NCBI GenBank assembly: GCA_021740175.1
Contig: JAIPAH010000002.1
Coordinates: 1-58,272, forward strand
Length of the DNA: 58,272 nucleotides
DNA from: Bacteroidales bacterium
GTDB taxonomy: Bacteria > Bacteroidota > Bacteroidia > Bacteroidales > JAIPAH01
Direction of reading: 5' to 3'
The position numbers and the translations under genes were made by a program. Position 1 is the first letter of the stretch, and each line of letters opens with the position of its first letter. The notes under the pieces were generated by a model, which made no database searches, had not been told where the DNA came from, and saw only the letters and a list, made by a program, of their open reading frames with translations. Below, piece after piece: positions 9,944 through 44,679 of this stretch.

Positions 9944-10309
9944 TGTTTACTATTTTATTAACCATAAAAATAACAAATTTAAATATTCATAGTATTCTCT
10001 TGCATTTTGGAGAATATTTATTCAATCTTATTCACTTTATTATATAAATAATCCCATAGGGCTTGAGACACAATTATATTATCTTTGATTATAAATTTTT
10101 AGTATAAGCTTATATGAATTTATCATAAGGGGACAATAAAGAATAACATCATTCTATAAACAAAAATAACTATAAAATTTGATTTTCTCATTTAGTTTAT
10201 TACTTTAGTATAAATTTATTGATACAGATAACCCATTATTTTTTTGAGATGTAAAATAAAATTCAGACTATCAATGATATAGCAATTCAAATTTTTACTT
10301 TTATTTAAT

Positions 10310-12634: not shown

Positions 12635-14644
12635 TCATTTCGCCAGATAAGTTATCTGAGTATGTCTACATAGCCGCTTTTCTTGGTAGATTTCAGCTAA
12701 ATCAAAGGGGCCATCTGTTTTTTGGAAGAGGTCTAAACCTCTACCTAAAATAATTTTCCACCCATTATTCGTTTCAATGAATCTATCATGGATGCTATCA
12801 TCAAATTCATAAGTAAAATAAATCTCCATAGATTCAAGGGATTCCTGTATTTGCTTAAAAGATTCCTTAGCGTTTTCAAGGTATTCCTCGTTATTGTTAG
12901 TCACTAAGTGAAGCTTTACCATTTCTCCTTTTTCCTTTACATCTGCCACCAAGCGACAGAATTCCATGAAATTTCTCATTTGATAAGGCAATCTGATAAA
13001 AGGGTCAGTTAGTGTTATTTCTGTAGCGCCTTTTAAATAATCGGCAAAAAGCTTATAATATGAAATCCCTGTTTGGTTATCATGGATTATTTTTTGACTA
13101 TAATCTGGCAGTTTCTTTTTGGTATTTTTAGGCTCTTCCTTTTCCTCTGTATCAACCAGATCTTCCTCGCTTTTGTCTATTTGCTCAGGTAAATAATTCA
13201 AATACTCCAAAGTGTTTATGATTACTTTCTTGCCAGAGCTATTGATATTATATGAGAAGTCGACTGGCTCAAATGTTTCATCCATTTTAATTAGCTCTTG
13301 CTTAACCCGCTTTCTATTTTCAATAGCAAAATCAAAAAGCTCTTTCAGTTGATTTTCATCATATTGCCCGTCAGGATAAATCACTTTAATCAATCCGCTT
13401 ACTGTTTTGGCGATGGAATCTCTATCTCTACTGGTTAACGTGTCTGATAATTCGAAATATTCTTTATAAATGTTCGTATAATCTTCTTTTCTGAGATGTT
13501 TAAGGATCTCTGCTAAATAATCTACTATAAAACCGTAATTATTGGTAAACATCTCTGTTCTTAACTTATTGACTTCCCAGCCGGGCAAATAACATTGTAT
13601 TCGATCAAGAAAAGCTGAATCATGATATACATCAGGCAATGCTTCAAAAAGATCGCTGTGCTTCAGCATAAAGGCGACTGAATGTAAGGTATTACCCACA
13701 AAAGCCATCGAAGCATCAGCACCGTATACTTCAGTACCTCTTGAGAAGGATTTATTTGCCATGTAGTTTTTCATGATGTCTACAAGACCTTTATCGACTT
13801 TTTTTGTCGTCCCTGCAAATTCATCGTAGGCAACAACGTCCCAGTAACCAACTAAACCAATATCTCCAGTACTATTATTTACAAACAATTTGGCCTTAGT
13901 TACTTCCCCTCCACTAATTAAAATACCGTGAGGTGACATTTCAGAGTAAATATGAGATTTTCCTGTTCCTTTAGGGCCAAGTTCAATGAGATTATAGTTA
14001 TTCTCTGCAAATGGAACTAAACGGGTTAATTGGATAAATTTAGATCGCTTATTGAAATGTTCCGGGTTCAGCCCAATGGATCGCATTAGGAGATCCAACC
14101 ATTCATCAGTTTTAAATAACTTTCTGGCCTCTTTAAATTCTTCTATATCAATTTGAGCTACTTGAATGGGTTTTATACTTTCAAGTATCCAAGGACTTTG
14201 CTCTTTTTCCTCAGGAACAATATAACCCAATGTAACTATGCACCAAACCCCTGATGATAGAAGTTTTTTGTGTCTTTTAACAATGTCCGGATCAACAATT
14301 ACTTTTTTTACTCCAAGGTTGGCAAAGGCAGCTTCATACAAACCTCTCCTGTCATTCAATTTAACCGAAACCTTGTCTATTATTCTATGCGATCCCTTTT
14401 CTTTGATAACTGACTTAATATACTGGGCTTCATCCCGGTGAACAAAGTGCTCTGCGATAATCTTTTTTACTGACTCCACCCCTGCATTTATAGTTTCTTC
14501 GTCATCTGTAGCACAATATTGCCCCAATAAGTATTCTAAGACATAGGTTGGAACAACAGCATTCCCTTTAACTAATTTGGTAAGATCCTTTCTGACTACC
14601 TTACCGCCATAGTGTTCGTTGACTTTTTTATCCAGTGTATCCAT
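12635..14644 (-). CDS. brxL: BREX BrxL-like AAA ATPase, variant with MIT_C/PLD-like C-terminal domain in place of Lon protease domain
   Basis: The N-terminus LDKKVNEHYGGKVVRKDLTKLVKGNAVVPTYVLEYLLGQYCATDDEE and Walker A GPKGTGKSH match BrxL over about 470 aa. The last ~150 aa (TDPFIRLPYQMRNFMEFC...SIHDRFIETNNGWKIILGRGLDLFQ) resemble the MITD1 C-terminal PLD-like domain. Last gene of the BREX operon. Confidence 0.85.
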   Translation of the reverse strand: MDTLDKKVNEHYGGKVVRKDLTKLVKGNAVVPTYVLEYLLGQYCATDDEETINAGVESVKKIIAEHFVHRDEAQYIKSVIKEKGSHRIIDKVSVKLNDRRGLYEAAFANLGVKKVIVDPDIVKRHKKLLSSGVWCIVTLGYIVPEEKEQSPWILESIKPIQVAQIDIEEFKEARKLFKTDEWLDLLMRSIGLNPEHFNKRSKFIQLTRLVPFAENNYNLIELGPKGTGKSHIYSEMSPHGILISGGEVTKAKLFVNNSTGDIGLVGYWDVVAYDEFAGTTKKVDKGLVDIMKNYMANKSFSRGTEVYGADASMAFVGNTLHSVAFMLKHSDLFEALPDVYHDSAFLDRIQCYLPGWEVNKLRTEMFTNNYGFIVDYLAEILKHLRKEDYTNIYKEYFELSDTLTSRDRDSIAKTVSGLIKVIYPDGQYDENQLKELFDFAIENRKRVKQELIKMDETFEPVDFSYNINSSGKKVIINTLEYLNYLPEQIDKSEEDLVDTEEKEEPKNTKKKLPDYSQKIIHDNQTGISYYKLFADYLKGATEITLTDPFIRLPYQMRNFMEFCRLVADVKEKGEMVKLHLVTNNNEEYLENAKESFKQIQESLESMEIYFTYEFDDSIHDRFIETNNGWKIILGRGLDLFQKTDGPFDLAEIYQEKRLCRHTQITYLAK

Positions 14645-14646
14645 AA

Positions 14647-17142
14647 TTAAATATCATCAAAATCACTTGTAAATGAAATGTTTAAGGTATAATAATATTC
14701 TTTATAATGCTTCCATTGGTTTGAACCTTCAACAGGTTCTTCCAATATTAATTTAACACGCTGATTCTTATATTTACCACTTGCGTTGGCACTTAATTGG
14801 AATCGGTGTTTTACCTCTCGTGTTCTTTCCAGCCCTTCTGTTTTATCAAATTTGTAGGTGAATTGATCACTCAGAATAGTTCCATCGTCTGCATATAAAG
14901 CTGCCCGAATGGTTCTGGGGAGTGTTTTTTCCGTTACCAATTCGGTTTGTAGAAAGGATACAGCAAGCAAATTGGTAGTTATTTTATCTGATGACTTAAT
15001 CACGTCTATTTCAACTTGCTTGGTAGTATCTTTTCTTACCTTGGTTACTTTCACCAGTGGAACAACTATTTCTTGTAGGGTAGCCCCACCGTGCACATAT
15101 CTTGAGCCTGAACCTTTTACTCGAATCCGATTAATTGATTTTGGAATTAAAACTTCTCCTTTTCCGTTTAATCCCAGCTGCTCTGAAGTAAAGTGTTTTG
15201 TGCTCTTTTCACCATCAAGGTTCTGTCCGATGACATACCTGCGGGATTCTTTCCAAATATTCCCCTTCACCTTTCCTGCGGAGAAATCGCTTTCATCAAG
15301 CTCATGATTTTGGTATAAAAAGCCATGATCAGCCGTAATGAGCATATTATACCCATTCATATTGCTGATTTTCTTCACCACATCTAACAAATAATTGATT
15401 TCTGCCTCAACAGCTTCTGTTAGCTTGTCCTCTGAAGTTTTATCGTCACCTACTTTATCTATCCGGTTGTGAAAGATATAAATCAAGTCATGCTTTTTAA
15501 CAAAGTCCCTCCCATCTGTACTGGCATTCATAGCCATAAAATCCTCTGCATTGATAGCGGTTGCTTTTGCTTCTTGGTAATTTTCTAAAACATTTTTCCG
15601 GCCCTGTAAACCTGAAGCTGATTTACCATCCACTAAAACATTATCGCTTTCAGGCTCTATTGAAATATGCTTATGGGGTAACAAATTGGCCATTCCTAAC
15701 TGGGTGTATGATGGTAGACTTGTAACCATATAATTCATTTGACCTTCAAAACGTTTTTCGTTTTGTATTTTTCGGAAATATTCCCATCCACATTCATACC
15801 TCAGCGCATCTGAAACCACTACAAATACTCTCTGTTTTTTTGTAATAAAGCTTTTCACGTGGCCTGTAAAAAATCTGTTTTGAGAAATTTGGTGAATATC
15901 ACCCCACGAATCAATATTGTCGATGATTTTTTGCCAGTTGTTATTGAAATGGAAAAGCCAGTCGTTACGATAAACCTTTTCTACCTTATCAAGTAACTCC
16001 TCTAATGCTCGATTCTGTTTAGTTAAGCGATAATTATGAATAAACTTCCGGTAATCGTAGTCTATTTCGAAATAAGTATCCGTATAATTTTTGATACCTT
16101 GTTGGAATGATTCAATCTGATCCTGATTATGTTTTTTAACTAATTTGATGAGGTCATTTCCATATTTAAGACAGGCATAGAAATACTGATACTCATTATA
16201 CCAGTATTTGTACTCTCTTTTCTTGATAAACTGGTCAACCTTCCCATTAATATAAACTTCATTGATTATAAAATAAGAAAGATCGGAAATCACTTTTTGA
16301 TCGATGATTTCAAATAGGTCATCTTCTATAACATCATCAACTGTTGCTTCGTTAAGCTTGGCTTCCACGTTCAATTCGTCCGCAATCTTATTCGATAAAG
16401 CTTTAAATGATTCCCTGTAGGTGATTGAATCTTTCCAAACCGAGAGTAAAATTTTGGACTCATTTGAAATACCTGTCCGTTCTCCAAGCGAAAAGTTATT
16501 CTTAAAAACTTCAATTAGAAAATCATAAATAGAAGGATTGTCTGAAATATAATTGAATCGTCTTTCAATCTCTTTCCAATAAAATGATTTTAAGTTGTAG
16601 CGTTCTAATTCCTTGTTATACCTTTTACTTTCATTGGTGAAGGCAGTCGCATGAGCCATGATGAAAGAGGTTAATCCAATATTCTCCACCCCGAAAAGTA
16701 TAGCCAGCATTTTATAGCGGATGGCCTTGTGCTCATCATTTTTCCCGAGTAAATCTTTTAATTTCGCTCTTCTTTCCTTGTTAGCGAAAAACTCAATATG
16801 CTCACCAATGAGTTCTTTAAAATGAAATTCCAGCCCCACCTCCTGACAATACAGGGCTTCTTGATCACTATGAAAGACAAAGTAAGCCAATTCAAGGTCT
16901 AATAGCCAATTGTTGTGATGTTCTGGTTTATCATAAGGAAAATACAGCAGGAACTTATCTTTTGGTTTCTCTCTTTCGATGAGATGTTTTAAATAAAATT
17001 CGTTGTTATCAACCTCAACCTTTTCCACATCTCCTAATGATAATTCAGAGAATTCATGGTAAAGTTTTTTCTCTTTGTCATACCAAAATATTACTCGGTA
17101 ATCCTGAAATTTTTTATTTAGGTTTTCCGCTATTTTACTCAT
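14647..17142 (-). CDS. pglZ: BREX alkaline-phosphatase-like protein PglZ
   Basis: 831 aa. PglZ-type motifs VVVSDALRYE and ITADHGF. Positioned between pglX and brxL, with an ATGA overlap with the pglX stop. Confidence 0.9.
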   Translation of the reverse strand: MSKIAENLNKKFQDYRVIFWYDKEKKLYHEFSELSLGDVEKVEVDNNEFYLKHLIEREKPKDKFLLYFPYDKPEHHNNWLLDLELAYFVFHSDQEALYCQEVGLEFHFKELIGEHIEFFANKERRAKLKDLLGKNDEHKAIRYKMLAILFGVENIGLTSFIMAHATAFTNESKRYNKELERYNLKSFYWKEIERRFNYISDNPSIYDFLIEVFKNNFSLGERTGISNESKILLSVWKDSITYRESFKALSNKIADELNVEAKLNEATVDDVIEDDLFEIIDQKVISDLSYFIINEVYINGKVDQFIKKREYKYWYNEYQYFYACLKYGNDLIKLVKKHNQDQIESFQQGIKNYTDTYFEIDYDYRKFIHNYRLTKQNRALEELLDKVEKVYRNDWLFHFNNNWQKIIDNIDSWGDIHQISQNRFFTGHVKSFITKKQRVFVVVSDALRYECGWEYFRKIQNEKRFEGQMNYMVTSLPSYTQLGMANLLPHKHISIEPESDNVLVDGKSASGLQGRKNVLENYQEAKATAINAEDFMAMNASTDGRDFVKKHDLIYIFHNRIDKVGDDKTSEDKLTEAVEAEINYLLDVVKKISNMNGYNMLITADHGFLYQNHELDESDFSAGKVKGNIWKESRRYVIGQNLDGEKSTKHFTSEQLGLNGKGEVLIPKSINRIRVKGSGSRYVHGGATLQEIVVPLVKVTKVRKDTTKQVEIDVIKSSDKITTNLLAVSFLQTELVTEKTLPRTIRAALYADDGTILSDQFTYKFDKTEGLERTREVKHRFQLSANASGKYKNQRVKLILEEPVEGSNQWKHYKEYYYTLNISFTSDFDDI

Positions 17143-19862
17143 TTTATTTGTGATGTATCAATCCACTCAAAGTTTCTTACTTTGTCTTTTGTTTTCTTAT
17201 CATTAAGTCCATTTACTTCTTTTACAGCTTTTCCGAACTTGTTGTAGTTCACTAATACCCCATCATCTAAATCTATGTTGATCCGCTCTGTAGCCAATGG
17301 ATATAGTATCTCCCTGTCATATTCCTTAACTTCCCAAAGCATCTTATCAATTCTTTCATCTTCTTTTATGGCCTCTGTTTTTTCACGGGTACTTCCACTT
17401 ACCTTGAGTTCTTGTAAGTGTTCTTTTCTAATGCTCAATTTCTCCGTGAATTCTCTCAAATATTTATTCAAAATATTATTTATGGTATCGGGAGTATACC
17501 TGTGCATATAAATTAACACGTTGAAAACGCCATTAGGTGAAGAAAGCATCCAGTAAATAGGTCTCTTTTTGTACCGTTTAATATGGTCTTTATAAAAGTC
17601 TTTCATGAAATACTTACGAATAGGTTTCCCCAGAGAATCTTCCACAAAGGCGAGGTTATTTTCAAAATTTTCTTCTCCAAAGGTGACTTTCAAAAACTGA
17701 TGGAATCGACCCACTATATCGTCTTCAAACCATTCATCGTCCAATACAGGAATTACATTGTCATCATCGGGTAAAAAGGAAATTTCATTTTGAGGCTTTC
17801 CAACTTTTTCAAGGTAATCTTGCAGAGTTTCTCCTTGATTGGCGAGAATAAGTCCTTCTTTATCCAATGAATATCGCCCAAACATACATCCAACGGCATA
17901 ACTCACAAATTGGGCAATGACTTCATCAGCATGAAATATTAGTTGTCCATTTTCTATACTCGTTTCTTGTTGAAGTATTGTAATATTCTCTAATGGTACA
18001 TTAGGAGATAATTCATTTTGCAAACCATAAATTTCAATGAATTGTTGGTTTACTTTTTCTTCATTACGATGAAGTTGGAAATATTTATTTCTCCAATATT
18101 GTTTATAAAGATCAAATGATTCTTCTATATCTTGAGCTTTTAAGCTGCATAATTCATTTTTGGAAAAAAACCATGATGATTCTCTTTGGTTCCAATCGGA
18201 TTTAGCAATGTCAATGCAAGAAGATACAATGACTTTTAAATTATTATCATCAAATCCTGAGTATGGTATTTTTGAAACATCACCTACATTAAAAGTCAAA
18301 GTGGGGCTTAATACCTCAAGAAATGATAAAACAACTTTTGAGTTTAAAAAACCAATTAACTCTTCATTAGTACTATTAATAATAGGTCCCCTTGAATTTG
18401 GAATAAAACCAAACTCTTGCATTCTAAAAGCAGGGGCTCCAGAGCTAACATCACTGAAAGATATTCCTTCCATACAGTAATAGTTATAATTCCTAATATA
18501 TCTTGACCAACTATTTGTAGCTGGATCATTAGGATTGTTTATTAACCAATCTTTTATTTCTTCACCGTCATTTTCCCAATTTATTATGAAATCGTTGTTA
18601 CCATACCATTTTCTAAATCTTCCTCCTTTTGTCATAGGCAACCATTTTTTGGACTCTTTCAGATCATTTCTGCTTTTATTTGAGAAATCTAACTTTGAAA
18701 ATGAGACTTCGTGCCAAAAACGCAAAAAACGATTATTATTGCCTGTAGAAAGACCTGCTCTTGGTGGGTAAATATGTCTCAAATCTGGTTCTTTAGAAAA
18801 TGCTTCAATCTGCTTTCTGTTTAACCAATAACCGATTCGATAATCAGGTATATTCTTAAAATCATCCTGCAAGGCTGTGTACAACCATGAAGAATTTTTA
18901 TTATTTACTGCTTCTATAGCCTTTGGGGCTTGGTTTTTAGAACCTTTAAAATCACTTAGACGAATATAACTTCCTTTAGCTAAATATTCAGGCTGTTTCT
19001 TTCTTAAAGTAAATGTGCAAATTGGCACAGTAGCTCCTTCGAATCCTGAATATTCAAGTTGAACAAGATTATTTATGAAATAGTTATCAATAATTATTTT
19101 TCTTAACTCTTTATAATTAGAAATGAACATCCAAACAAAAGGAGTCATGTTTCCTGAAAGTCCATTATCATTGGCAAACTCAAGACACCTTATTATGAAA
19201 GAAGCAAATAAATCTGTTTTAGTTGCTGGAAAATACTTCTCCACATATTTTTTCAATTCAGCTTCCATTCGAGATGCATTAAGATAAGGTGGATTTGTCA
19301 CAACCACATCATAAGTTCTGGACAGATAATCAGCTTGTAGTTTTAATCGTTGCTGTTGCTGACCAAATAAAGACTCCTCCTCAGTTTTTATTTCCTCATA
19401 TTCCTCTCGATTGATTTTAATCAGGGAACCCAAGACTTTGGCATTTTTGAATTTGGGGTGGTTTTCGATATTTTGAAAAGAGGTAATATTGGGGTGAGCA
19501 CCTTTTCTAAGAAACTTTCTCTGATTTTGGCGGGCTTTCATCATTAAGGAAAAAGCAGCCATTTGTGCAGCCCTATCATCTATATCAATACCGAATAAAT
19601 TTTTTGTAATGATCAATTCAGGTATTTCTGATGGATTGTATCCTTCTTCTTCATAAATTTTATACAGGAAATCAAATGCATAACTGACTATATGTCCACT
19701 ACCCACGCAAGGATCAAAAAATTGAATTTCTTCAGGAGAGGTTAATTTCCTTTTGGGAATCAATTCTTCATTCTGAGGCTTGATATAGAATTGCAAATGC
19801 TCCGTTATTCTGGTATTTGGTCTTGCTTCCTTCCATAGTTGTCCTAATGTATTATCTACCAA
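17139..19862 (-). pseudogene. pglX: pglX 3' fragment (907 codons, from LVDNTLGQLW to stop) of the disrupted BREX methyltransferase
   Basis: Contains the catalytic VVTNPPYL motif and a long PglX-like C-terminal region. It has no start codon of its own and is read only as a continuation of the recombinase ORF 17139..21473. It joins seamlessly to the 5' fragment at 30096-30812. Confidence 0.85.
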
Positions 19863-19870
19863 ATACTGAA
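19863..19870. repeat. Junction core ATACTGAA (recombinase-proximal att site)
   Basis: On the coding strand ..AATTTTATTCAGTAT|TTGGTAGATAAT... The octamer is identical to the one at 30096-30103. Confidence 0.7.
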
Positions 19871-21473
19871 TAAAATTAGTTATATTAGAACGAATATGCT
19901 CTAATTCCTTGTTAACGTCCTGATAATCTTCGTCTAAACTAAATGTATCAATTAAATATTCATCGCTCAATGGCAGGGCAGTAAAGGTATTCTCAATTAT
20001 TCCATTGATTTCAAATGTTACATCCTTATCCCTGGTAGCATCTACATAAACGCCTAATCTACGCCCTTGACTGTCTTTGCCCTGAAAAGCTCGCTCCACT
20101 AAATTGCGTTTCCATTCATACGGCTTATCAAAGAGGACTTTTAGATTGGATTTCGTACTGTTCAATAAAACGCCCTTGCCTAATTTGGATAGTTTTTTCA
20201 CGTGGTTGGAATCCGGTATGCTTTCCAGTTCTGCATCAATAGCATAAATACGATTCTGTTTAGCAGATTCTTTTTCCCTAATGGAATTGAGTTTGTTTTC
20301 AATTTCTGTTTTATCAAATAACCCGTCCGCTACGGCATCAATTATTTTTCCTTTTTGCTTTTCTAAGGTTTTCAGGTCTTTTTCTAACTCGGTTTTCTCG
20401 GTTTGTAATCCGTCTATTTTTTGCATATCCGGGGCAGCCCTTCGCATGGCTTTTTCCAATCGTTCTACATCGCCAAACGTTTGTACTAATTGAATAACAA
20501 CGGCGGATTCAATTTCCTGAGCCGCAATCCAACGTGGATTATTGCATTTTTTGCGGCTGTGGGCGTGGTGTACATAGTAACGATTCCCACTACTGGTTGT
20601 GGTTCCACATAGTGCATATCCGCAATTCTTACAGAAAATCATCCGGCTTAATAGATACTTATTTTTGATTTGCCCGTGCTTATACGTTCTATTCGCCTCT
20701 GAACGTTCCTGAACGGCTTTTATGGTTTCATCATCTAATAAAGGCGGGATTTCCATTGTTATTTCCTCGTGAATATTCAACCGCTCGTTATTAAATTGTA
20801 CTTTCCACTGACTGCCTACTCGCTCTTTTAATATTCGCCACAAATTAGCAGTATTCATGCCTAAGGATTTAGCAATTTCATCAATTTTCTCGCCTTCCAA
20901 ATACCGATTGGCGGCTTGTTGAATCCGTTGTTGTTTTTCCTTATCCAATCCCCAGCCTTTTTCATCACTGTATGTTCTGCCATAAGGCAAATGTCCACTG
21001 GTAGGAATATTGCGTTTGGCTTTATTTATCCGATTGATAATGCTTTTTTGGCTTTGCATCATGGCGTGAAACTCGTTTATTTCCGCGCTCATGCCTAAAA
21101 ACATATTTTGTTCAGGATTAAATAAGTCATATTCCATTGTACCGACGAAAAAACGGATATTACTTTCTTTTAGAATCCTTAGCCCTTCTTTACTTTTCAA
21201 ATTATCTCGGCTCCAACGACTTGCATCGGTTACAATTACAGCATCAAATAAATCCTTATTACTGTCTTGTAACAATTTTTCCATTTTCTTCCGCTCATAT
21301 TCAGGTGTAGCGTGTTCCTGCCCGGTGTATTGCCAACAATGTTCAGGAATAACGCCATTCAACGCCCTTACATATTGTTTGATTTGCTCGGTTTGCGTTT
21401 TCAAACTCTCGCCCTTTGTCTGTTGGCCTTCGGTGGATACGCGGATAATTGGTGCGAATCTTAATTGTGCCAT
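19863..21473 (-). CDS. Large serine recombinase (native part, 537 codons); ORF reads through the junction into pglX
   Basis: Resolvase catalytic motif APIIRVSTEGQ with DASRWSRD. Recombinase domain GHLPYGRTY. Zinc ribbon CKNCGYALCG..(x)..HSRKKC. Coiled-coil region. No stop codon before the element boundary at 19863. Confidence 0.9.
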
Positions 21474-21526
21474 TGTTCTAATCTATTCTGAGTTTATAAA
21501 TCTTATCATTTATTATTTGTTTGGTT

Positions 21527-21811
21527 CTACTTTGCTGACTTTTTAGGGCTCCATAATTTCTTACAATCCTGGCATTCGTAAGTGCCTCCGGCAAATGGTG
21601 ATATTAAACCGAAAAGAAATGCTCCCGCCCCAATAACAATCAACGGAATACCGATAATCGGAAACATTAGAAGCCAAATTCCGCATCCTGTAAGACCAAG
21701 ACCGCCTAAAATAAATTTAATTGTATGCTCTGCTGCTGTGGTTTTCTTCTGTCTGGTTGAACCGCATTGCGGGCATTGTGGGACTTCATTTTGCTCATTT
21801 TGATTTGTCAT
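21527..21811 (-). CDS. Small zinc-ribbon membrane protein
   Basis: CPQCGS near the N-terminus and CQDCKK near the C-terminus, with two TM helices between them. Confidence 0.5.
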   Translation of the reverse strand: MTNQNEQNEVPQCPQCGSTRQKKTTAAEHTIKFILGGLGLTGCGIWLLMFPIIGIPLIVIGAGAFLFGLISPFAGGTYECQDCKKLWSPKKSAK

Positions 21812-21829
21812 TGTTCTAATTTTTTTGGA

Positions 21830-22465
21830 TTAATATTCGATTCGTTTAATATTCGATTCATTGTCGTCTGGTACAAGGTCGGCATATAACAGCGTCATAT
21901 TGATATTAGAGTGCCCCAGGTACTTTTTCACTTTCAGCAAATCCTTTGTACTCTTGTAAAGATACGTTGCGTACGTGTGCCGGGCGTTATGGATGCTGTA
22001 TTTCTTTGACAATCCTGCCGTTTCAACCGCCTTTTCCCAGCTTTTCATGAGTGTTATTGTTGGCGGGTGATTCCCGTTCCTGCCTGCAAACAATGGCGCA
22101 TTTTTATCAATGGATTGGCCTAATGTCTTTTGTTTGTAGCTTATGAAGTTTTTCAGGTGCGAGCATAGACCGGATTCAATGTACACGAAACGCTGTTTTT
22201 TCCTTTTCCCGCTCCTGACAATTAGATAAGGATTTTTTCCTGTGGTGTTAATGTCGCCAATCGTTAAGGCTGCCAGTTCCATAACTCGCAAACCGCTATA
22301 CAAAGCTAAATCAACAAGCATGTAACGGACAGGCTTTGTTTTCCTACCTTTCATTAAATCTAATTCCGAACGTTCACGACACGTTTTTAATAATGTCTTT
22401 TGTTCGTCTTCATCCAGAAACTTTTCCGGTGTGATTACGTAGTTTGAAATTTCTCGGGCTGCCAT
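21830..22465 (-). CDS. Short tyrosine recombinase (catalytic domain only)
   Basis: GLRVMEL (box I Arg), HNARHTYATYLY (H-x-x-R) and LGHSNINMTLLYADL (His/Tyr). At 211 aa it lacks a long N-terminal core-binding domain. Confidence 0.85.
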   Translation of the reverse strand: MAAREISNYVITPEKFLDEDEQKTLLKTCRERSELDLMKGRKTKPVRYMLVDLALYSGLRVMELAALTIGDINTTGKNPYLIVRSGKRKKQRFVYIESGLCSHLKNFISYKQKTLGQSIDKNAPLFAGRNGNHPPTITLMKSWEKAVETAGLSKKYSIHNARHTYATYLYKSTKDLLKVKKYLGHSNINMTLLYADLVPDDNESNIKRIEY

Positions 22466-22702
22466 AATGTAGATTTTTAGTGTAAATATTTTATAGTTTA
22501 TTTAATTGTTTTTATATAATACCTTTAAAAAATCAATTAGATTTTATATATTATATAATATTTGCTATAAAATTAATATAAAAATTGGAACATTCCTGAC
22601 ATATGACCGAATAATTTTAAAATTATTTGTTAAAAATATTTATCACATTCAGCATCCACAAGCAATCTCAGCACTTCCATAACACGAACAATATTTTACA
22701 AG

Positions 22703-23413
22703 TCAACGTAAACGAGTGTATGGAATTGGGCGTGGACGCACAGGCTTTGTTTTATCGGTATTTTCTTCGTTCTCCTGAACGTTCTCCTTTTCCTTATATC
22801 CTTGTTTATCCTTTTCGTCTGTTACAGGCGAAGTTTTCGGGGTTTTTGTACGGGTCATAGGTTTTGTTTGTGGTTTCCTTAATTCCCACGCAAAGTAACT
22901 TTCATCAATAACCGTATTGGAATGCTCGTCTGTCATTTTCGCATACAACTGGTTAAATACCGATAATTCAGTCCGGTTTAGCTTGGAGAATGCCTTTTCT
23001 AATTCAAACTCATGTTCCTGTTCTGTTTGGTGCTGTGCTTGCTCCTGCTCCGCCTGTTTGCTTTGGTGATACGCATACGATATTTTAGATAATAGCTCTA
23101 ATATGTTTCGTTGCTCACTAATCGCTTTTAAAGCCATTCCATCCCGCTGTTTATTATAATTCCTGTCAAATATATCCTTTGCCTTAGTCAGGATGTCATC
23201 GATCTTATCAAACAAATTAAATCCTTCATCTAATGATTTCCTTTCATATGCCTGTTGGATTTGCCTACTTAAATGATTCTGCATATGGTTACGCACTGTA
23301 TAATAAGCCATACCATACTTTTTAGAAATTTGCAGAAAGGATTCACCCCCCATGTAAGCCCTTTCCATTTCGAGTTTATACTCGTCTTTGCATAAATCAC
23401 ATCTATCTGCCAT
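22703..23413 (-). CDS. HTH-containing protein (regulator or small-terminase-like), function uncertain
   Basis: N-terminal C.LC followed by ..FLQISKKYGMAYYTVRNHMQNHL (HTH-like), then a coiled-coil and an acidic/basic tail. Confidence 0.35.
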   Translation of the reverse strand: MADRCDLCKDEYKLEMERAYMGGESFLQISKKYGMAYYTVRNHMQNHLSRQIQQAYERKSLDEGFNLFDKIDDILTKAKDIFDRNYNKQRDGMALKAISEQRNILELLSKISYAYHQSKQAEQEQAQHQTEQEHEFELEKAFSKLNRTELSVFNQLYAKMTDEHSNTVIDESYFAWELRKPQTKPMTRTKTPKTSPVTDEKDKQGYKEKENVQENEENTDKTKPVRPRPIPYTRLR

Positions 23414-23414
23414 T

Positions 23415-23726
23415 TTATTTTCCTCCTTTTAGCCCGTTAATTAATTCTGTTAATTTGATATTTCTATGTTTTGTTCTTATTATTGCCTTAAACCCTTGAT
23501 TTTCATACCTTTCTATAAATTCTGGTAGTTCATCTGCTATTATTGCTGGCTCGGATTGGATTTCCTTAGTCTGTCTCTGGAATGATACAATATCAATTAG
23601 CCAGCAATCTGGGTCTGCTGTGCAAATGAGAATAGAATTGGATGAATGAGTTTTACTCAATATTCCGATTCGTTTGTAGTTTTTATATCTTTTGGATAGC
23701 TTCATCTTATTATTCTTTTGGGTCAA
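23415..23726 (-). CDS. Hypothetical protein
   Basis: 103-aa ORF, tightly packed with its neighbours on the same strand. Confidence 0.4.
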   Translation of the reverse strand: MTQKNNKMKLSKRYKNYKRIGILSKTHSSNSILICTADPDCWLIDIVSFQRQTKEIQSEPAIIADELPEFIERYENQGFKAIIRTKHRNIKLTELINGLKGGK

Positions 23727-23885
23727 TTATTCTTATTATTTATCCATTAGTAAAAATTAGATTAAAAATTGTGTGCAATCTCTCTCCCTTATTTATGTTT
23801 ATAATATATTTTATATAGTATTTTATATTGTATTTAATACGGGTTCTAAAACTTATTGATAACCAATTAATTATAAAGATTTTTA

Positions 23886-24013
23886 TTCTCCATTTATAGT
23901 TAAACCATTCTCCATTTATAGTTAAACCATTCTCCATTTATAGTTAAACCATTCTCCATTTATAGGTCGCTATTTTCCATTTATAGGTCGCTATTTTCCA
24001 TTTATAGGTCTGA
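23886..24013. repeat. Six tandem 21-22-bp iterons (putative replication origin)
   Basis: TTCTCCATTTATAGTTAAACCA occurs three times (23886-23951). TT(C/T)TCCATTTATAGGTCGCTA occurs twice (23952-23993), plus one partial copy. The array abuts and overlaps the 3' end of the Rep-like gene. Confidence 0.8.
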
Positions 24014-25657
24014 TTGTTTTAAATTAGATGTAGATTTATATTTTTCTTCTTTTCCAGTTAAATTCTCTGTTCCGAACTTCATCCCGGTTTGTTCATCCTT
24101 ATATTTCCATTTAACTTTCATTACTTTACTTGGATATTCGCCTTCATCACCTGTTGCAGACATACTACCGATAGTTACCTTGGATTTTCCTTTTCCTTTT
24201 CGATTCATGGCCTCCTCTAATTTGATAAACTTTTCCCGTAAACTTCGCCCGGATTCAATTTGTGGCGTGAATCGGTCATTTATATTCTTAGCATACCACG
24301 ACAAGGCGTTTTCTATCCGCTCAATACTTACTTTGTTTTCCTCCACTAATAACCGAATATCATTGCTCCAATTCTGTTCCTGTTTTACGGTGCAGCGAAT
24401 ACCTCTTTCATTTTCAATAATCGTAGCGAGCTTTTCAGCTAATGGATAATATTTAGAGTTTACAGGCTTTTCGGATAGGGTTTTGGGTTTGCTGCTATTA
24501 GGCTCATTAATTGCAGCACTTTTGTATTGATTGGTTCCTCTGCCACCTGAATGACTACTCGCAACTTCTCCCTTTTCCTGGCCTTGTTTGATAGGCATAA
24601 TATTGACTTTATCCCGTTCAATCTCAAAACGCCCGATAAGTCCTCTTTTCATTAACTTGTTTAATGTAGTTTTAATCTCAAACCGAATATTTGCCATGCT
24701 TTTTTGTTCTGATTGCAGCCCTCCTAATCCGGTTAATTCATACATTTTCCTGATTCCAATGTTAGATAATCGCCCGTATTGATTAAATGACTTTTGCCGC
24801 ATTAAGAAGTAATAAATATTAGCTTCCCGGCTCGGTAACTTGAAATAAATTTCTGGTTTCATAAACGGGTATCCTTCATCAATAAGGTCAACAAAATTCT
24901 TATCCATAAAAATTTCAATCTCAAAAGATGAATCCTCCTCTAATTCCACAGCCCCGTCTAAAATACCGCCAATCATTCTTTTCCCATTTTTATTTTTTAG
25001 AGTTATAACACACCCCCGCAATCGTTCTAAACTATTCCAAATGGCCTCTTTGGTTTTTTTATCATAGGGATTAGCTTTTTGAAGCATTTGGCCTATTTCT
25101 GTCATGGTGGTAGTAAAATAAATATTCTTTCTATTGATTTCCGTTTTCTTCATTCGTTTGATAAGCAATAAAGCGAGTGTCGTTTTCGCATCCTCCGCAG
25201 TTAATGCTGTTCCTTTGATTTCCATTGTTGTTAGGCCATATTTTCGCTCTAACGGTTGTGAAAGCTCAATGAATTTACCTTCCCTTTTATTTAAACATAG
25301 GAAAGGTGTGGGAGCTACAAAATCATTTGGTAACCCTTTATAATCGGTTTCAAAAAATCCTTTGTATTGCGGTTTAATAAGGGGTTTTATAAGTCTCCGA
25401 GCTTGCGGATTGAATTTTTTTGCAATATCTACTACATCTTTTTCATGATGAGCCCTGATAAAGCGGTTAATTCCTTTCTTCATATCAGTTTTAATGGCTT
25501 CAATACTTTGTGTATCGTTATCTGTTGTTTGCCATAGGTCTTCGTATTTACTATAAAGCTCGTTACAATTCTCAAAATATTTACTGACTTGATATAGAGT
25601 GGATAAATATTTTTGTAATTCCGTCTTTTTCTTTGTTGGTTGTTTTGTCCTTTTCAT
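24002..25657 (-). CDS. Putative replication initiator (Rep/winged-helix-like)
   Basis: 551 aa. Central region ..IYYFLMRQKSFNQYGRLSNIGIRKMYELTGLGG.. is reminiscent of RepA/Rep_3 initiators. Iteron array lies immediately downstream. The assignment is mostly contextual. Confidence 0.5.
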   Translation of the reverse strand: MKRTKQPTKKKTELQKYLSTLYQVSKYFENCNELYSKYEDLWQTTDNDTQSIEAIKTDMKKGINRFIRAHHEKDVVDIAKKFNPQARRLIKPLIKPQYKGFFETDYKGLPNDFVAPTPFLCLNKREGKFIELSQPLERKYGLTTMEIKGTALTAEDAKTTLALLLIKRMKKTEINRKNIYFTTTMTEIGQMLQKANPYDKKTKEAIWNSLERLRGCVITLKNKNGKRMIGGILDGAVELEEDSSFEIEIFMDKNFVDLIDEGYPFMKPEIYFKLPSREANIYYFLMRQKSFNQYGRLSNIGIRKMYELTGLGGLQSEQKSMANIRFEIKTTLNKLMKRGLIGRFEIERDKVNIMPIKQGQEKGEVASSHSGGRGTNQYKSAAINEPNSSKPKTLSEKPVNSKYYPLAEKLATIIENERGIRCTVKQEQNWSNDIRLLVEENKVSIERIENALSWYAKNINDRFTPQIESGRSLREKFIKLEEAMNRKGKGKSKVTIGSMSATGDEGEYPSKVMKVKWKYKDEQTGMKFGTENLTGKEEKYKSTSNLKQSDL

Positions 25658-25704
25658 AATACATCATTTTATCATTCTACATTCTGTCCATTCCTTTTTT
25701 ATAA

Positions 25705-25773
25705 GTCTGAGCTAAGGAGCAGTAGAGGAACGAACAAAACTACTGCCCCACAGCTCCGGCAGCTGCCTCAGAC
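25705..25773. other. GC-rich multi-hairpin palindromic element upstream of rep
   Basis: The outer stem GTCTGAG/CTCAGAC (25705-11 / 25767-73) encloses the GCAGTAG/CTACTGC hairpin (25719-25 / 25740-46) and the palindrome GGCAGCTGCC (25758-67). Confidence 0.5.
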
Positions 25774-25850
25774 CCTATATGTTGCCCGGCGGTCGTAATC
25801 CAGTACAAAAACTACAACCCTTTTTTTGGCTTTCCGGGCAATGTCTTTAG

Positions 25851-26012
25851 TTATTCAATTGCTTCTTTTAATATTTTTGATAAGTAAAAAGCATATCCAG
25901 CCCAAAAAGCTATTACGATTCCCGTTATGATATTTTCATCTATAAAATTGTACATGCTAAATCCTATCAATGCCACTGCTATGCTTAGCAAAAAATATCT
26001 TATCGTTTTCAT
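25851..26012 (-). CDS. Possible 53-aa two-TM membrane peptide (below ORF-track cutoff)
   Basis: My own translation: MKTIRYFLLSIAVALIGFSMYNFIDENIITGIVIAFWAGYAFYLSKILKEAIE. Same strand as all other element genes. Confidence 0.35.
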   Translation of the reverse strand: MKTIRYFLLSIAVALIGFSMYNFIDENIITGIVIAFWAGYAFYLSKILKEAIE

Positions 26013-26186
26013 GGTTCATCTTTATTTTATAATACGATTTCATCTCATTTCAATTAAAGAAGGGAGCCGGATGAAAGCACGACCCCCTTCAAACCAAAAA
26101 AAGAGAGAACAAACCAAACCACAAACCAGCATTGCCGTAGAAAATGCTGAAACAAAATCCAACGCCGCCAGTTTGTATCTTAAATA

Positions 26187-26972
26187 TCATTTTACGGATT
26201 CCTTTTCCAATTCAAAATCCTTTCCGTCCCATTTAGGGAGCGGCGCTTTGACGTTCGCCCGCATCATGGATTTTTTGCCTTCATCTTTCGCTTTTGCTCG
26301 TTCTAATTTTGTTAATCTCCTACATTCGAGCTTCCACGTAGATACAAGCGTAAAGTAATCCGAAGTTTTCATTCCGTTGTAAGGACTTCGTTCATCCTTA
26401 ATCCTTAAAACTTTTTTGGAATCCGGTTCAACGTTTTGCCCGTCAATCTCGCAAAGGACTCCGCCTCGCATTTTCCCAGCACCCTGTAAACCATGTTTCA
26501 GGACTCGGCCTTTAGCAATCTTTTCTTTTTCCTTTTGGACTTTATCGAGCCTACGTTTAATCGAATCCAGCTCCAATTTGGTAACATCGTAATATGCTTC
26601 CGCCTTAAACATTTTCTCCGCAATATGTGGCGGGTATTCCGTTGGCTTTGCCCTGCCTGCATTTACCTTTTCTTGTTGGTATTCCTGCCAACTGGTTTCA
26701 GCATCTTTCAGATGAGCTTTCGCAATGTTCATTTTACTATCCCGATTCTCGTTTCTCTCCTGATAGTAAAACATCCCGTCTTCCGGGCGTCCTTCCCATT
26801 CGAGCCGCATAGATTTCAGAAATACCGGGTCATCCAAACTGCCTGACACTGAAAAATCTTCTACAAACTGATTATTCAGTATTGCGCTTTCCTTCCGGTG
26901 CTTGTCATACTTTTTATCATAAGCCGGATGCTGCCCGATTTGATACCTTCGTTTTCCACTATTGTTTCCCAT
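26187..26972 (-). CDS. Hypothetical charged protein (phage-like context)
   Basis: 261-aa ORF, same strand, 10 nt after the upstream gene. No family recognised. Confidence 0.45.
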   Translation of the reverse strand: MGNNSGKRRYQIGQHPAYDKKYDKHRKESAILNNQFVEDFSVSGSLDDPVFLKSMRLEWEGRPEDGMFYYQERNENRDSKMNIAKAHLKDAETSWQEYQQEKVNAGRAKPTEYPPHIAEKMFKAEAYYDVTKLELDSIKRRLDKVQKEKEKIAKGRVLKHGLQGAGKMRGGVLCEIDGQNVEPDSKKVLRIKDERSPYNGMKTSDYFTLVSTWKLECRRLTKLERAKAKDEGKKSMMRANVKAPLPKWDGKDFELEKESVK

Positions 26973-26982
26973 TGTTGCCTCC

Positions 26983-27762
26983 TTATTTTACGTTAGGCAA
27001 CAACAATCCGTCATCGCCTTCATTCTCGTTTTCTTCTACTTTGTTATAAGCAGTAGGCAGCAAGATTCCCTGTTTTTCTGCCTCTGCCTGTAAGGTTTTT
27101 AAACCTTTTTCATCCTTGTTTTCTTTGGGTTTCTCCACTCCATTTGGCGGAAACAATCCCATGTCCTGTAAAGTGTCCATTTCAACCTCCTTATTTACGT
27201 TATTTATCATTATTTCTCCAGCCTGTGTGGCCAGTTCTTTTAATCTACTATTTGTTCTAATCCCGCATCCGTCAGCCCAGCTACATGCACCCCTTTCATT
27301 TGGTAACAGCGCCAGGTGGTCTGGTTCCATAGCAATCGAACTCATATAGTATTCATTATCGTTATATGTACCGTAGGTTTCCGTTTCTTCTGAGAATACC
27401 CCTGCGCTAACTTCTTTCACGCTTTGTATCTCCGTTAATCGGTTATGATTGGATGGAATCTCAATTTTAGCTTTGATTCCTTTTTTGCTATTGTCATATT
27501 GCGGTTGGGTTACTTTTCCGATAATCTCGTCCGGAGCTTCTTTTACGCTAATCGGTTCTCCATTTCGCACTGGATGGTTGATAACAACGGGCGTTCCTTC
27601 CCATTTGCTCGCATTGTCTCGTAATACGTGCGCAGGCCAAAAGATTGGACCGCGGCTTCCGTGATGCACGCCTTCAACCATTATTATGACCGGGGCAACT
27701 GCCTTGTTTCCGACAAGCTGCCACGGGCTGGTTAAATTAACTGTTATTGATTGTCTTTTCAT
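26983..27762 (-). CDS. Phage-like protein, possibly DUF2213 / prohead protease-scaffold-like
   Basis: VEGVHHGSRGPIFWPAHVLRDNASKWEGTPVVINHP resembles the N-terminal signature I recall for DUF2213 phage proteins. Acidic C-terminal tail. Confidence 0.35.
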   Translation of the reverse strand: MKRQSITVNLTSPWQLVGNKAVAPVIIMVEGVHHGSRGPIFWPAHVLRDNASKWEGTPVVINHPVRNGEPISVKEAPDEIIGKVTQPQYDNSKKGIKAKIEIPSNHNRLTEIQSVKEVSAGVFSEETETYGTYNDNEYYMSSIAMEPDHLALLPNERGACSWADGCGIRTNSRLKELATQAGEIMINNVNKEVEMDTLQDMGLFPPNGVEKPKENKDEKGLKTLQAEAEKQGILLPTAYNKVEENENEGDDGLLLPNVK

Positions 27763-28219
27763 AGCTTAATCGTTTTTGAAGGTCTGACATATATTTTTTC
27801 TCCTCTTCGGCAAAGTCCACTCCATCTCGTCTCAATTGCATTTCAGCTCGGGTTTTTTCCATCAATAAAAAACGGTCGAAAAAGGATTTTGCGCTAACGA
27901 GAAAAGATAACTTCTCATTCATCGGTAAACCCTGAATCTTTGTGAAAACCTTGTAAAATGCTTGCTCCACTTCGTAGGGGGCCATGGGCTTGCCTTTCAT
28001 TGGCATTTCTCGGTTATTCAACCAGTCAATCGGTCCTAATTCTACTTCCAGAAGTTCCCGGACTTTCGGCCCTGGGTTATTTGTACCGTTTTCAATAAAG
28101 CTGATTGTCACTGTGGAAACGCCTGACTTAGCGGCTAACTCCGTTTGTGTTAATCCCGCTCTTTTTCTCACATTTTGCAGAGAATAGTATCTCATTTTTT
28201 TATCGTATTTAAGTACCAA
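27737..28219 (-). CDS. XRE-family HTH regulator
   Basis: LQNVRKRAGLTQTELAAKSGVSTVTISFIENGTNNP is a canonical Cro/C1 HTH. The start may be the internal Met (MRYYSLQN). Confidence 0.8.
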   Translation of the reverse strand: MVLKYDKKMRYYSLQNVRKRAGLTQTELAAKSGVSTVTISFIENGTNNPGPKVRELLEVELGPIDWLNNREMPMKGKPMAPYEVEQAFYKVFTKIQGLPMNEKLSFLVSAKSFFDRFLLMEKTRAEMQLRRDGVDFAEEEKKYMSDLQKRLSYEKTINNS

Positions 28220-28623
28220 AATTCATTTACAAGATTAAAATTAATATCTTCCCTTAATAAAACCTAATAAAATCATAATAGTTATTAACAATTTTTTATA
28301 TGTTTGTTAATTATATTATATTAATCAATTGCAATCCAATCCATTAACCTTTTATTTAAAATATATATTAATTATTAATATTTTTAAAATATATGCTTAA
28401 GTTTTAAACTTTGGGGTTTATTTTATACTTTTAATCAGATACTTGCGAAAGTCTAAAACACGAAATGAACGGCTCTAATAAACGTTCGGGGTAATATGGG
28501 TATAATATACTGGAAAGGATAGAACGTTTATGAGAGCTTAAATTTGACACCTTATTTGCTTTTTAAATCGGAATTGATTAATTTAGTCAGGTTATGTATA
28601 ATATTGCGATTAGGGTTGAGATG

Positions 28624-28663
28624 AAAAAGCCCGGCCATTTCGAGGAAAGGTCGGGCTTTGTTA
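28624..28663. terminator. Rho-independent-type hairpin downstream of lipoprotein gene
   Basis: GCCCGGCC (28629-36) pairs with GGTCGGGC (28649-56), 8 bp with one G-U. Flanked by AAAAA on one side and TTTGTTATT on the other. Confidence 0.5.
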
Positions 28664-28697
28664 TTATATTAAAATTTAATTATCAATTAGTGCCAGT

Positions 28698-29330
28698 TTA
28701 TTTTATGTCTTCAAATCTCTTAATTTTAAAATTACGTGTTAATATTATTTGTGTATCAAGTGTTCTCTGGGTTAAATCAGCTTCTGTTGCAGTGATTTTA
28801 GCAGTTACCAAATAATATCTAAAAGTCAATGAGTCCAGAGTAGGGTTATTCAAGTCACCCATTAAAGTACCAAGTCTAATTTGATCTTCCGTTTCTTCTT
28901 CTATCATTTGTTGGATTTCTTTTTCCGCTGATTCTTTTAGCGTCTCATTTTCGTAAACACCCAATTCTCTGTTCAAGGCAATTTTCTTCGATTTTAATTT
29001 TCGTAACTTTCTATTTTTTTTAATTTCTTGCCGTAAAGCATTAAGTTTCATTGTCAAAATAGATTTATCTGTCAAGGTGTCAATACGCTTTATTGTTATT
29101 GAATCAATTGTAATTTTCTCCTCCTCTTTCTTTTGAAGGTCTTCAAGATTCTTGGTGATAAATGTAGTTACTGTTTCTGAAATATTCTCTCTATAGTCTT
29201 TTTTTTCACCTTCTTTTTTGTGGTTAGTGTCAGAGCAAGATAAAAGAGTAGTAATGAAAATTACTAATGTCAGAGTGTTTAATAAGATTTTCATTTTTGT
29301 ATGTTTTTGTTTATAAATTGGAGCTAACAA
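28698..29330 (-). CDS. Lipoprotein with coiled-coil region (element cargo)
   Basis: MKILLNTLTLVIFITTLLSC lipobox. The likely start is the internal Met at 29294. K/E-rich. Confidence 0.55.
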   Translation of the reverse strand: MLAPIYKQKHTKMKILLNTLTLVIFITTLLSCSDTNHKKEGEKKDYRENISETVTTFITKNLEDLQKKEEEKITIDSITIKRIDTLTDKSILTMKLNALRQEIKKNRKLRKLKSKKIALNRELGVYENETLKESAEKEIQQMIEEETEDQIRLGTLMGDLNNPTLDSLTFRYYLVTAKITATEADLTQRTLDTQIILTRNFKIKRFEDIK

Positions 29331-29352
29331 CTAAATATTAATAATTATTTTT

Positions 29353-29904
29353 TTACCAGTTGTCTTTTTCTTTCCTAACTTTAAGCATATTTGTAAGTGT
29401 ATAATCTAAAATTTTTGCAGGGTGTTTAAAATTCATATCTGCATAATCCCTTAATGGATTTTTCTCCCCTTTTTCAGTCAAGGGGTCATCATAAGCCTGA
29501 GAAAACACAAAATTCTTTACTGTTGTCCTGTATTTCCCTTCTTTATAATCAACAATTAAATATCCTGTAAAATGGCTTCTTGCAATATATATTGGTGCTC
29601 TCATTTCTGAATATCCAGCACCTTTATAATCAGGATCAAATGGTTTTAAATCGGCCATAAATTCCTTTTCACTTGGATTTATTTCTACTGTCTCATTTTC
29701 TAAGTAACCTGTTGATTTAAAATTTCTAACAAGTTCATCAAAAGTCAGGTCAGTGTTAAAAACTTTTTGCCATAGAATAACATTACCTTTTTTCTCAAAA
29801 TTGTAACGTTCTTCTTCTGACAAATTGGTTATGCCACTGGAAAATCCACAGCCATTTAATAATGAAGCTGATAGTAATAATAAGATAAAAATGTATTTTT
29901 TCAT
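29353..29904 (-). CDS. Lipoprotein (element cargo)
   Basis: MKKYIFILLLLSASLLNGC lipobox. Confidence 0.55.
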   Translation of the reverse strand: MKKYIFILLLLSASLLNGCGFSSGITNLSEEERYNFEKKGNVILWQKVFNTDLTFDELVRNFKSTGYLENETVEINPSEKEFMADLKPFDPDYKGAGYSEMRAPIYIARSHFTGYLIVDYKEGKYRTTVKNFVFSQAYDDPLTEKGEKNPLRDYADMNFKHPAKILDYTLTNMLKVRKEKDNW

Positions 29905-30053
29905 AGCTTATAAATTTAGTTTAACTAAATTATCAAAAAAATTAAACAATTAATAAATTGTGACTAAGTTAATAGTGATTTGAGCAAAAGTCCAGTTTAT
30001 CTACTAAACAAAATTGCCTTTTTATAAATTAGCTTTCATGTTTTATGTCATAT

Positions 30054-44649: not shown

Positions 44650-44679
44650 ATATAGAATCGAAAACAGGAGGAGACATTC

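Follow-up and report, generated by a model that had tools for sequence, protein, structure and literature searches.

BrxL is needed for phage restriction by bacteriophage exclusion (BREX) systems. The structurally described BrxL of Acinetobacter (PDB entries 8EMC and 8EMH) consists of an N-terminal domain, an MCM-like AAA+ ATPase and a Lon/RadA-like C-terminal domain (residues ~498-679), and is the product of the last gene of a type-1 BREX operon. Its C-terminal domain has no protease residues or protease motif and mediates the contact of two hexameric rings, and the protein acts on DNA in its pore; tryptophan substitutions in the ring contact leave restriction intact, and a Walker B mutant abolishes it (PMC10164562; Shen et al., Nucleic Acids Research (NAR) 2023). 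Here we describe the brxL gene (12635..14644, minus strand) found in a stretch of 58,272 nucleotides from a Bacteroidales bacterium (contig JAIPAH010000002.1, hereafter the window), whose product has the same N-terminal domain and ATPase and, in the place of the Lon/RadA-like domain, an MIT_C domain with a phospholipase D (PLD) fold.

BrxL proteins of this type form a common subtype that is already known, and the window adds one more member. In PMC12839542 ('Expanding the landscape of BREX diversity', NAR 2026), LonP is reported to be replaced in 1030 of 2913 type-1 BREX taxa by an 'HKD-endoDNase' with an HRD motif, which is proposed to degrade invading DNA alongside PglZ; the same paper raises the idea that auxiliary effectors might sense the nicks made by PglZ. 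PMC12065111 (Li et al., NAR 2025) likewise proposes an active HRD-motif endoDNase. An earlier reading of the window from its letters (the original prediction) had suggested two outputs for the domain, nuclease-like activity and membrane binding, both of which are hypotheses present in the current literature. As the architecture is already covered by Pfam, PADLOC and the two NAR papers, the window is another instance of it; what the present analysis adds is the frequency of the MIT_C type within the phylum, its grouping in a single clade, a shift of an Asp residue in the pocket and the lack of a conserved partner gene behind brxL in the related loci.

Two further systems bear on the question of what the MIT_C domain does. 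Pfam describes MIT_C (PF16565) as a 'phospholipase D-like domain at C-terminus of MIT', and in human MITD1 it follows an N-terminal MIT domain, which binds ESCRT-III and acts in cytokinesis; in BrxL its partner is a DNA-loading AAA+ ring encoded in a phage-defence operon. Going by the title of Hadders 2012, MITD1 reportedly binds membranes and dimerises, and we know of no report of an enzymatic activity for it. Binding of PI(4,5)P2 by MITD1 is listed in PMC9776629. The second system is DruE of type III Druantia, whose two C-terminal PLD domains 'closely resemble' MITD1 and form a pocket of Asp, His and Arg, with H1999 and R2001 as an H-x-R pair; DruE is a nuclease on single-stranded DNA in vitro, this activity is lost with D1740A, and Asp/Arg mutants abolish defence (bioRxiv 10.64898/2026.05.13.724313).

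Domain architecture of the BrxL protein

The open reading frame (ORF) list and translation give a product of 669 aa, encoded by the final gene of a type-1 BREX operon with the order brxA-brxB-brxC-pglX-pglZ-brxL, all six genes being on the minus strand. Pfam recognizes in it a BrxL_N domain (residues 10-141, 14222..14617; PF20442, E 9e-50) and the BrxL AAA+ ATPase domain (residues 152-463, 13256..14191; PF13337, BrxL_ATPase, E 2e-130), the latter with a Walker A motif GPKGTGKS (residues 223-230, 13955-13978) and a Walker B motif ..VVAYDEF.. (13817-13837, with DEF at residues 274-276), which together identify the protein as a BrxL. Consistent with this, residues 4-472 align in a PDB sequence search with residues 9-477 of Acinetobacter BrxL (8EMC/8EMH, E 1e-150), and the alignment ends there. 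The ATPase part is followed by an acidic and lysine-rich flexible linker (residues ~484-515, 13100..13195), which is marked by low predicted local distance difference test (pLDDT) scores and by variable columns in our alignment A3; residues 484-510 have a pLDDT below 50 in the full-length AlphaFold2 (AF2) model and are predicted to be disordered. Beyond the linker lies the MIT_C domain (residues 526-667, 12644..13069), which matches PF16565 with E 8.2e-45 and 152.7 bits against a cut-off of 25, spans profile positions 1-141 of 142, and was recovered at the same coordinates by a six-frame match over the whole genome.

The absence of a Lon-like domain is equally plain. Neither Lon_C nor ChlI of Pfam matches the brxL product even at E <= 1, and by the Lon_C profile at that threshold it has no Lon S16 domain with a Ser-Lys dyad, whereas Lon_C matches (E 1e-10, 4e-4 and 8e-16) were obtained with three BrxLs of the Lon type that were taken from this phylum as a positive control; in the same control, a short-type BrxL lacks a C-terminal domain altogether. 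The canonical NCBIfam BrxL model TIGR02653 is aligned only to about position 479 of 675, so that its Lon-like C-terminal domain, a feature that defines the canonical subtype only, is not found in the protein, and the score of 624 bits falls just below the cut-off of 628.25. The shorter model TIGR02688 (449 positions) gives 602 bits, well above its own cut-off, and the PADLOC BrxL model PDLC02508 covers the protein end to end (residues 1-668, E 1e-296), from which it follows that MIT_C-type BrxLs already have a profile of their own.

The fold of the C-terminal part agrees with the profile match. In the PDB sequence search residues 515-665 match human MITD1 (2YMB/4A5Z) with E 2e-25 to 2e-26. An AF2 model of residues 500-669 has a mean pLDDT of 89, and in Foldseek its top PDB matches are the MITD1 chains of 4A5Z and 2YMB (35-37% identity, template modelling (TM) score 0.80-0.88, root-mean-square deviation 2.1 A). 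Lower in the ranking stand PLD1/PLD2, phosphatidylserine synthase, Zucchini, vaccinia F13 and PLD3 (probability 0.99-1.0, TM only 0.41-0.54). The domain is thus an MIT_C domain by its profile score over the whole length, by the fold of the MITD1 C-terminal domain and by the wider PLD fold. In the full-length AF2 monomer the ATPase core is poorly modelled (pLDDT below 50 for residues 219-362), and this model therefore says nothing on how the MIT_C domain is packed.

The original prediction had read by eye an alignment of residues 1 to about 470 with canonical BrxL, a Walker A motif GPKGTGKS(H), an acidic/lysine-rich linker with no Lon S16 protease motif behind it, and a final stretch of about 150 aa mirroring the PLD-fold domain of MITD1, with the His of an HDR motif at residue 619 (codon 12788-12790); from this it had deduced a domain swap. 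Each of these observations stands, the acidic/lysine-rich stretch being located at residues 493-511. The Pfam comparison with both Lon_C and MIT_C and the structure prediction, which it had put forward as checks, decided for MIT_C and for the MITD1 fold respectively. Hence the gene is the brxL of a type-1 BREX operon and belongs to the known subtype in which MIT_C replaces the non-proteolytic Lon-like domain. It has the three-part architecture, the HDR ('HRD') motif and the place after pglZ that characterize the HKD-endoDNase or MIT_C BrxLs of PDLC02508, PMC12065111 and PMC12839542, and it differs from them in nothing of substance, save for an Asn four residues past the Arg of the motif and a disrupted pglX in the operon.

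Distribution and phylogeny of the MIT_C type

The best 120 homologues of the brxL product are 67-71% identical to it and all have the same three Pfam domains; those with a name come from Bacteroidota and Balneolales (e.g. Gracilimonas, Pontibacter, Hymenobacter and Flavobacteriales), and homologues are labelled 'Lon protease-like protein BrxL' in the source databases, including NCBI. A scan for related loci with one genome per species and the closer alignment A2 as query, which yields only copies fused to BrxL, found a relative in at least 469 genomes, and the best 80 of these at least 469 are nearly all Bacteroidota. The MIT_C domain is contiguous with the BrxL N-terminal and ATPase part in all related loci except one that is cut by the contig end, and pglZ lies directly upstream of brxL in every locus whose contig reaches far enough. 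Behind the gene there is no such constancy: in 61 loci with an MIT_C-type brxL, no downstream gene family was met with more than twice, and hence there is no sign in these loci of a dedicated inhibitor or a signal-making partner.

A survey of BrxL C-terminal types, a further check named in the original prediction, was made on an even sample of 401 genomes from the window's phylum, in which places with an MIT_C match were paired with BrxL_ATPase hits. MIT_C scored above the cut-off in 20 of the 401 genomes, nearly always within a frame of 672-709 aa. The BrxL loci of the sample divide into 18 of the MIT_C type, 12 that are full-length without MIT_C (Lon-type, three of them confirmed as such by Pfam) and 5 that are short or cut by a contig end, so that the Lon type is no more frequent than the MIT_C type in this phylum. 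A maximum-likelihood tree was then built on the BrxL N-terminal and ATPase region and rooted on the short type. In it the 27 validly extracted MIT_C-type rows form one clade with a Shimodaira-Hasegawa-like approximate likelihood ratio (SH-aLRT) support of 100, their sole sisters being two contig-truncated rows, and this clade is nested among the Lon-type BrxLs; one further row (L032_MITC), which represents a different ORF and has a branch length of 10, was disregarded and does not affect the clade. Such a topology supports a real replacement of the Lon-like domain, and one that would have taken place in a single event and then spread.

The MIT_C domain is not confined to BrxL. It is fused to GmrSD_N (775 aa), where it occupies the position at which GmrSD enzymes normally have their nuclease domain. 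It is also fused to BrxA (395 aa) and to C-terminal PglZ fragments in what are partial proteins, stands N-terminal to three S1 domains and an OB-like domain (790 aa), and is combined with PC4, Helicase_C, PKD/Ig, sugar-binding and Sel1 modules; in addition, there is a family of about 300 aa in which it follows an N-terminal domain of no recognised kind. Examples of these various proteins are the cluster representatives P0265, P0157, P0125/P0140, P0147 and P0182 together with G242:C67 (locus L099) and G091:C17 (locus L101).

One locus (L065, from a metagenome-assembled genome (MAG) of Gillisia) encodes a standalone MIT_C protein of 299 aa (10222-11121) about 0.7 kb downstream of its MIT_C-type brxL, just upstream of a gene for an EVE-McrB-like AAA_5 protein and a McrC-like gene. 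This gene order indicates that the BREX locus there adjoins a type IV restriction system, with the extra MIT_C gene in between. We considered the standalone MIT_C protein as a replacement of McrC and rejected the idea, since a McrC-like gene follows.

The conserved pocket and its possible function

When the final 170 residues of the brxL product were compared with 1.84 billion cluster representatives, 1143 clusters matched at E <= 1e-3, and the stricter limit of E <= 1e-10 left 583. Across diverse MIT_C domains, which in our alignment A4 are 36-58% identical to that of brxL, ten positions are invariant: D547, Q555, N558, T582, H619, R621, R635, G636, D638 and R657 in brxL numbering. They include Asp547 of an Asp-Pro pair (residues 547-548, 13001..13006, minus strand), the acidic residue of the pocket, which is invariant in alignments A4 and A2; the His and Arg of His619-Asp620-Arg621 (12782..12790, minus strand), the putative catalytic pair, which are invariant in sets of 27 and 48 diverse MIT_C domains; and the Arg, Gly and Asp of the motif Gly634-Arg-Gly-Leu-Asp638 (12731..12745, minus strand). 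In the model D547 follows the strand 542-546 (beta2) and H619-D620-R621 stands ahead of the strand 622-625 (beta5), an arrangement that corresponds to the site given in PMC12065111, and that paper names the position of Asp547 as belonging to the site. By sequence alignment, human MITD1 has every one of the invariant residues. The preservation of the same polar residues over such diverse MIT_C domains and MITD1 argues for a functional pocket rather than a bare scaffold.

A second feature of the pocket is a displacement of one carboxylate. Of 141 cluster representatives with the motif (P0122-P0271), 102 have H-D-R and a residue other than Asp, mostly Gly and also Ser, ahead of R-G-L-D, and the other 39 have H-[A/G/S/K/R/L]-R and an Asp ahead of R-G-L-D. 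None lacks both Asp residues, the two positions are mutually exclusive, and both types occur among the BrxL fusions. The pattern, which we did not meet with in the available parts of the two NAR papers (PMC12065111 and PMC12839542), looks like a compensatory shift of a carboxylate that is needed near the His/Arg pair. A carboxylate that must be kept in one place or the other would in turn point to a working pocket rather than a scaffold.

Based on these observations we favour the reading that MIT_C-type BrxL is a motor-coupled phosphodiesterase, i.e. a nuclease, to which we give about an even chance of being correct. Under this proposal the N-terminal and ATPase parts would assemble, like those of Acinetobacter BrxL, into a hexameric MCM-like ring loaded on double-stranded DNA. 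Held on flexible linkers of about 30 residues, the MIT_C domains would pair in the manner of PLD-fold domains and of MITD1, and each pair would make up a composite pocket of Asp547, Gln555, Asn558, Thr582, His619, Arg621, Arg635 and Asp638. The pocket could then act as a metal-independent phosphodiesterase on the DNA held by the ring, whereby this BREX subtype would gain a motor-coupled DNA-cutting effector alongside PglZ. In favour of such an activity speak the invariant residues, the Asp shift, the fusions of MIT_C to nucleic-acid modules and the MITD1-like nuclease DruE.

Like the presumed assembly, DruE couples a nucleic-acid motor to a MITD1-like PLD domain with an Asp/His/Arg pocket; unlike it, DruE has an SF2 (superfamily 2) helicase as its motor and two PLD domains per chain, which amount to a built-in pseudo-dimer, whereas BrxL has an AAA+ ring and one such domain per chain. 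D1740 and D1917 of DruE would correspond to D547 of brxL by their spacing alone; a PDB profile search for DruE or other remote MIT_C relatives returned only MITD1, plus S1 proteins brought in by one fused row. The single-HKD PLD nucleases (Nuc, BfiI and Zucchini/PLD6) resemble the BrxL domain in having a PLD fold and one motif per chain (Zucchini entries 4GGK and 4GGJ in Foldseek), and with one motif per chain the MIT_C domain of BrxL is likewise expected to need dimerisation. They differ from it in the low TM of 0.41-0.51 and identity of 9-18%, in the Lys and Asp of their motif, which are Arg and Asn in brxL, and in having G-S-x-N where brxL has G-R-G-L-D.

Several points weigh against the phosphodiesterase proposal. 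Catalysis by the BrxL domain is something that we infer from conserved residues and from analogy, and that MIT_C domains would pair within a BrxL assembly is likewise an idea transferred from PLD-fold domains and MITD1. The HxK(x)4D motif is absent, the brxL sequence being H619-D-R621-F-I-E-T-N626 with Arg for Lys and Asn for Asp; this H-x-R-x4-N form is shared by the closest relatives and MITD1, and more distant MIT_C domains have H-x-R-x4-D. Human MITD1 has these residues too, yet the properties for which it is known are binding to membranes and dimerisation rather than catalysis, and BREX was originally reported not to degrade phage DNA. Finally, the Lon-like domain that was replaced is itself non-catalytic and serves only as a ring contact, and mutants of that contact still restrict phage (PMC10164562), which makes a purely structural substitute possible.

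This last point leads to the principal alternative, in which a non-catalytic MIT_C domain simply takes over from the Lon-like domain and pairs two rings tail to tail or neighbouring protomers with each other. The MIT_C domain sits in the same position past the linker as the C-terminal domain of Acinetobacter BrxL, which dimerises hexamers without having protease residues (PMC10164562), and MITD1, whose crystal entries contain several chains, is described as a dimer. A scaffold of this kind, however, leaves unexplained why D, Q, N, T, H, R, R and D should be invariant across diverse partners and why the Asp should shift in a compensatory manner. Moreover, MIT_C is fused also to proteins that do not form rings (GmrSD_N, S1 and BrxA), and the MITD1-like domains of DruE are catalytic (bioRxiv 10.64898/2026.05.13.724313). 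We regard a purely structural role as rather unlikely.

Less probable still is that the pocket senses a phosphate ligand, binding a DNA end, a nick or a nucleotide signal without cleavage and thereby gating the ATPase ring. The conserved His, Arg and Asp would suit the binding of phosphate, phosphoinositide head groups are bound by MITD1, which has these residues as well (PMC9776629), and the sensing of PglZ nicks by auxiliary effectors has been proposed (PMC12839542); against this, no ligand is known, the 61 loci have no conserved signal-making gene downstream, and the precedent of DruE is a catalytic one (bioRxiv 10.64898/2026.05.13.724313). We consider it improbable, too, and more so than ligand sensing, that MIT_C anchors BrxL to acidic phospholipids of the inner membrane, where phage DNA enters. 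The PLD-like domain of MITD1 binds membranes, according to the title of Hadders 2012, and PI(4,5)P2 in particular (PMC9776629), and the BrxL domain is close to it, with 35-37% identity and TM 0.80-0.88. Yet the residues common to both belong to the PLD-type pocket and not to a demonstrated lipid-binding surface, the fusion partners of MIT_C elsewhere are mostly nucleic-acid modules, and BrxL acts on DNA in its pore (PMC10164562). A cryptic, highly diverged Lon S16 protease in the C-terminal third is excluded by the lack of any Lon_C or ChlI match at E <= 1 where Lon-type controls do match and by the confident MIT_C fold that fills this region, and nothing speaks for it, the NCBI label 'Lon protease-like protein BrxL' being a family name only.

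Should the MIT_C tail prove to be an active nuclease, many BREX systems would have a DNA-cutting output that is invisible to the model systems of E. coli, Acinetobacter and Salmonella, all of which are Lon-type, and an enzymatic role would be suggested for human MITD1. The phosphodiesterase proposal can be extended into a joint picture, which we put forward tentatively and, taken whole, think doubtful. Here the MIT_C domains would pair either from one stacked BrxL ring to the other or with their neighbours in the same ring, and composite His-Arg-Asp sites would surround the place where DNA leaves the pore, so that BrxL would be a translocase-coupled nuclease. The exchangeable Asp (H-D-R...G-RGLD versus H-A-R...D-RGLD) would be the catalytic carboxylate. 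Human MITD1, as it keeps every pocket residue, would also be a phosphodiesterase, so far unrecognised and derived from a bacterial defence module. Were all this true, about one third of type-1 BREX systems would be true restriction machines.

With regard to the relationship between the bacterial and human domains, the MIT_C domain of the window (12644-13069) and that of MITD1 have all pocket residues in common, and their identity of 35-37% is high for a bacterium-animal pair. Such a level of similarity suggests that the eukaryotic MIT_C domain may have been acquired from a prokaryotic conflict system.

The BREX operon and its surroundings

The upstream genes of the operon are brxA (34879..35520; PF08849, E 1.5e-40), brxB (34311..34895; PF08747, E 6e-40), brxC (30814..34311; with the BrxC Pfam domains), pglX and pglZ, the last of which encodes a protein of 831 aa and lies immediately upstream of brxL (14647..17142; PF08665, E 2e-55). 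In relatives' loci pglX is uninterrupted, whereas in the window an integrative element of about 10.2 kb (19863..30103, minus strand) divides it in two. The 5' fragment (30054..30812, minus strand) encodes 252 aa, of which residues 1-244 correspond to PglX by blastp against the intact proteins of loci L039, L040 and L019 (BrxX residues 75-256 being matched with E 7e-39), and the 3' part (17139..19871, minus strand) corresponds to residues ~237-1137 of intact PglX by blastp and by matches to the BrxX/PglX structures 8C45 and 9EWZ. Each junction has one copy of the 8-bp core TTCAGTAT, at 30103 and at 19870. The cargo of the element comprises a large serine recombinase, a tyrosine recombinase, a Rep/DnaD-like protein and an XRE repressor. 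The gene of the large serine recombinase lacks a stop codon and runs on through the junction in the reading frame of the 3' part of pglX, the result being an ORF of 1444 aa (17139-21473, minus strand) with the recombinase at residues ~1-534 and PglX at 535-1444.

Contigs from two lake-water metagenome runs, which may be the source samples of the MAG, span the two junctions, and their depth within the element equals that outside it. No empty-site (excised) form was seen among the metagenome contigs, in a resource (Logan) whose contigs drop rare variants. The brxL gene is intact and retains all of the conserved residues. As pglX is interrupted by the element, the BREX system is probably switched off for now in this population despite the intact brxL. 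Within the element, at window positions 23885-24010, both lake-water assemblies break into pieces of 35-49 nt with differing depth, which points to a short repeat or a strain-variable stretch.

Other genes near the BREX locus include a pair at 7938-9943 (minus strand), which consists of a gene for TcmP (three-Cys-motif partner, TIGR04474, E 4e-49) and, overlapping with it, a small gene for a radical SAM protein; the two make up a cassette of the mobile-pair type adjoining the BREX locus. Convergent with brxL is a translationally coupled gene pair (10310-12570, plus strand). One product, of 627 aa, has a motif of class I methyltransferases (a partial match, UPF0020/Trm14-like), the other is a STAS-like DUF4325 protein of 126 aa, and the two may form another defence-island module. 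Further along, window positions 42000-48000 have a G+C content of 0.48-0.49 against ~0.30-0.35 elsewhere, the GC skew switches sign there, and the plus strand contains ORFs of 485, 415 and 1045 aa.

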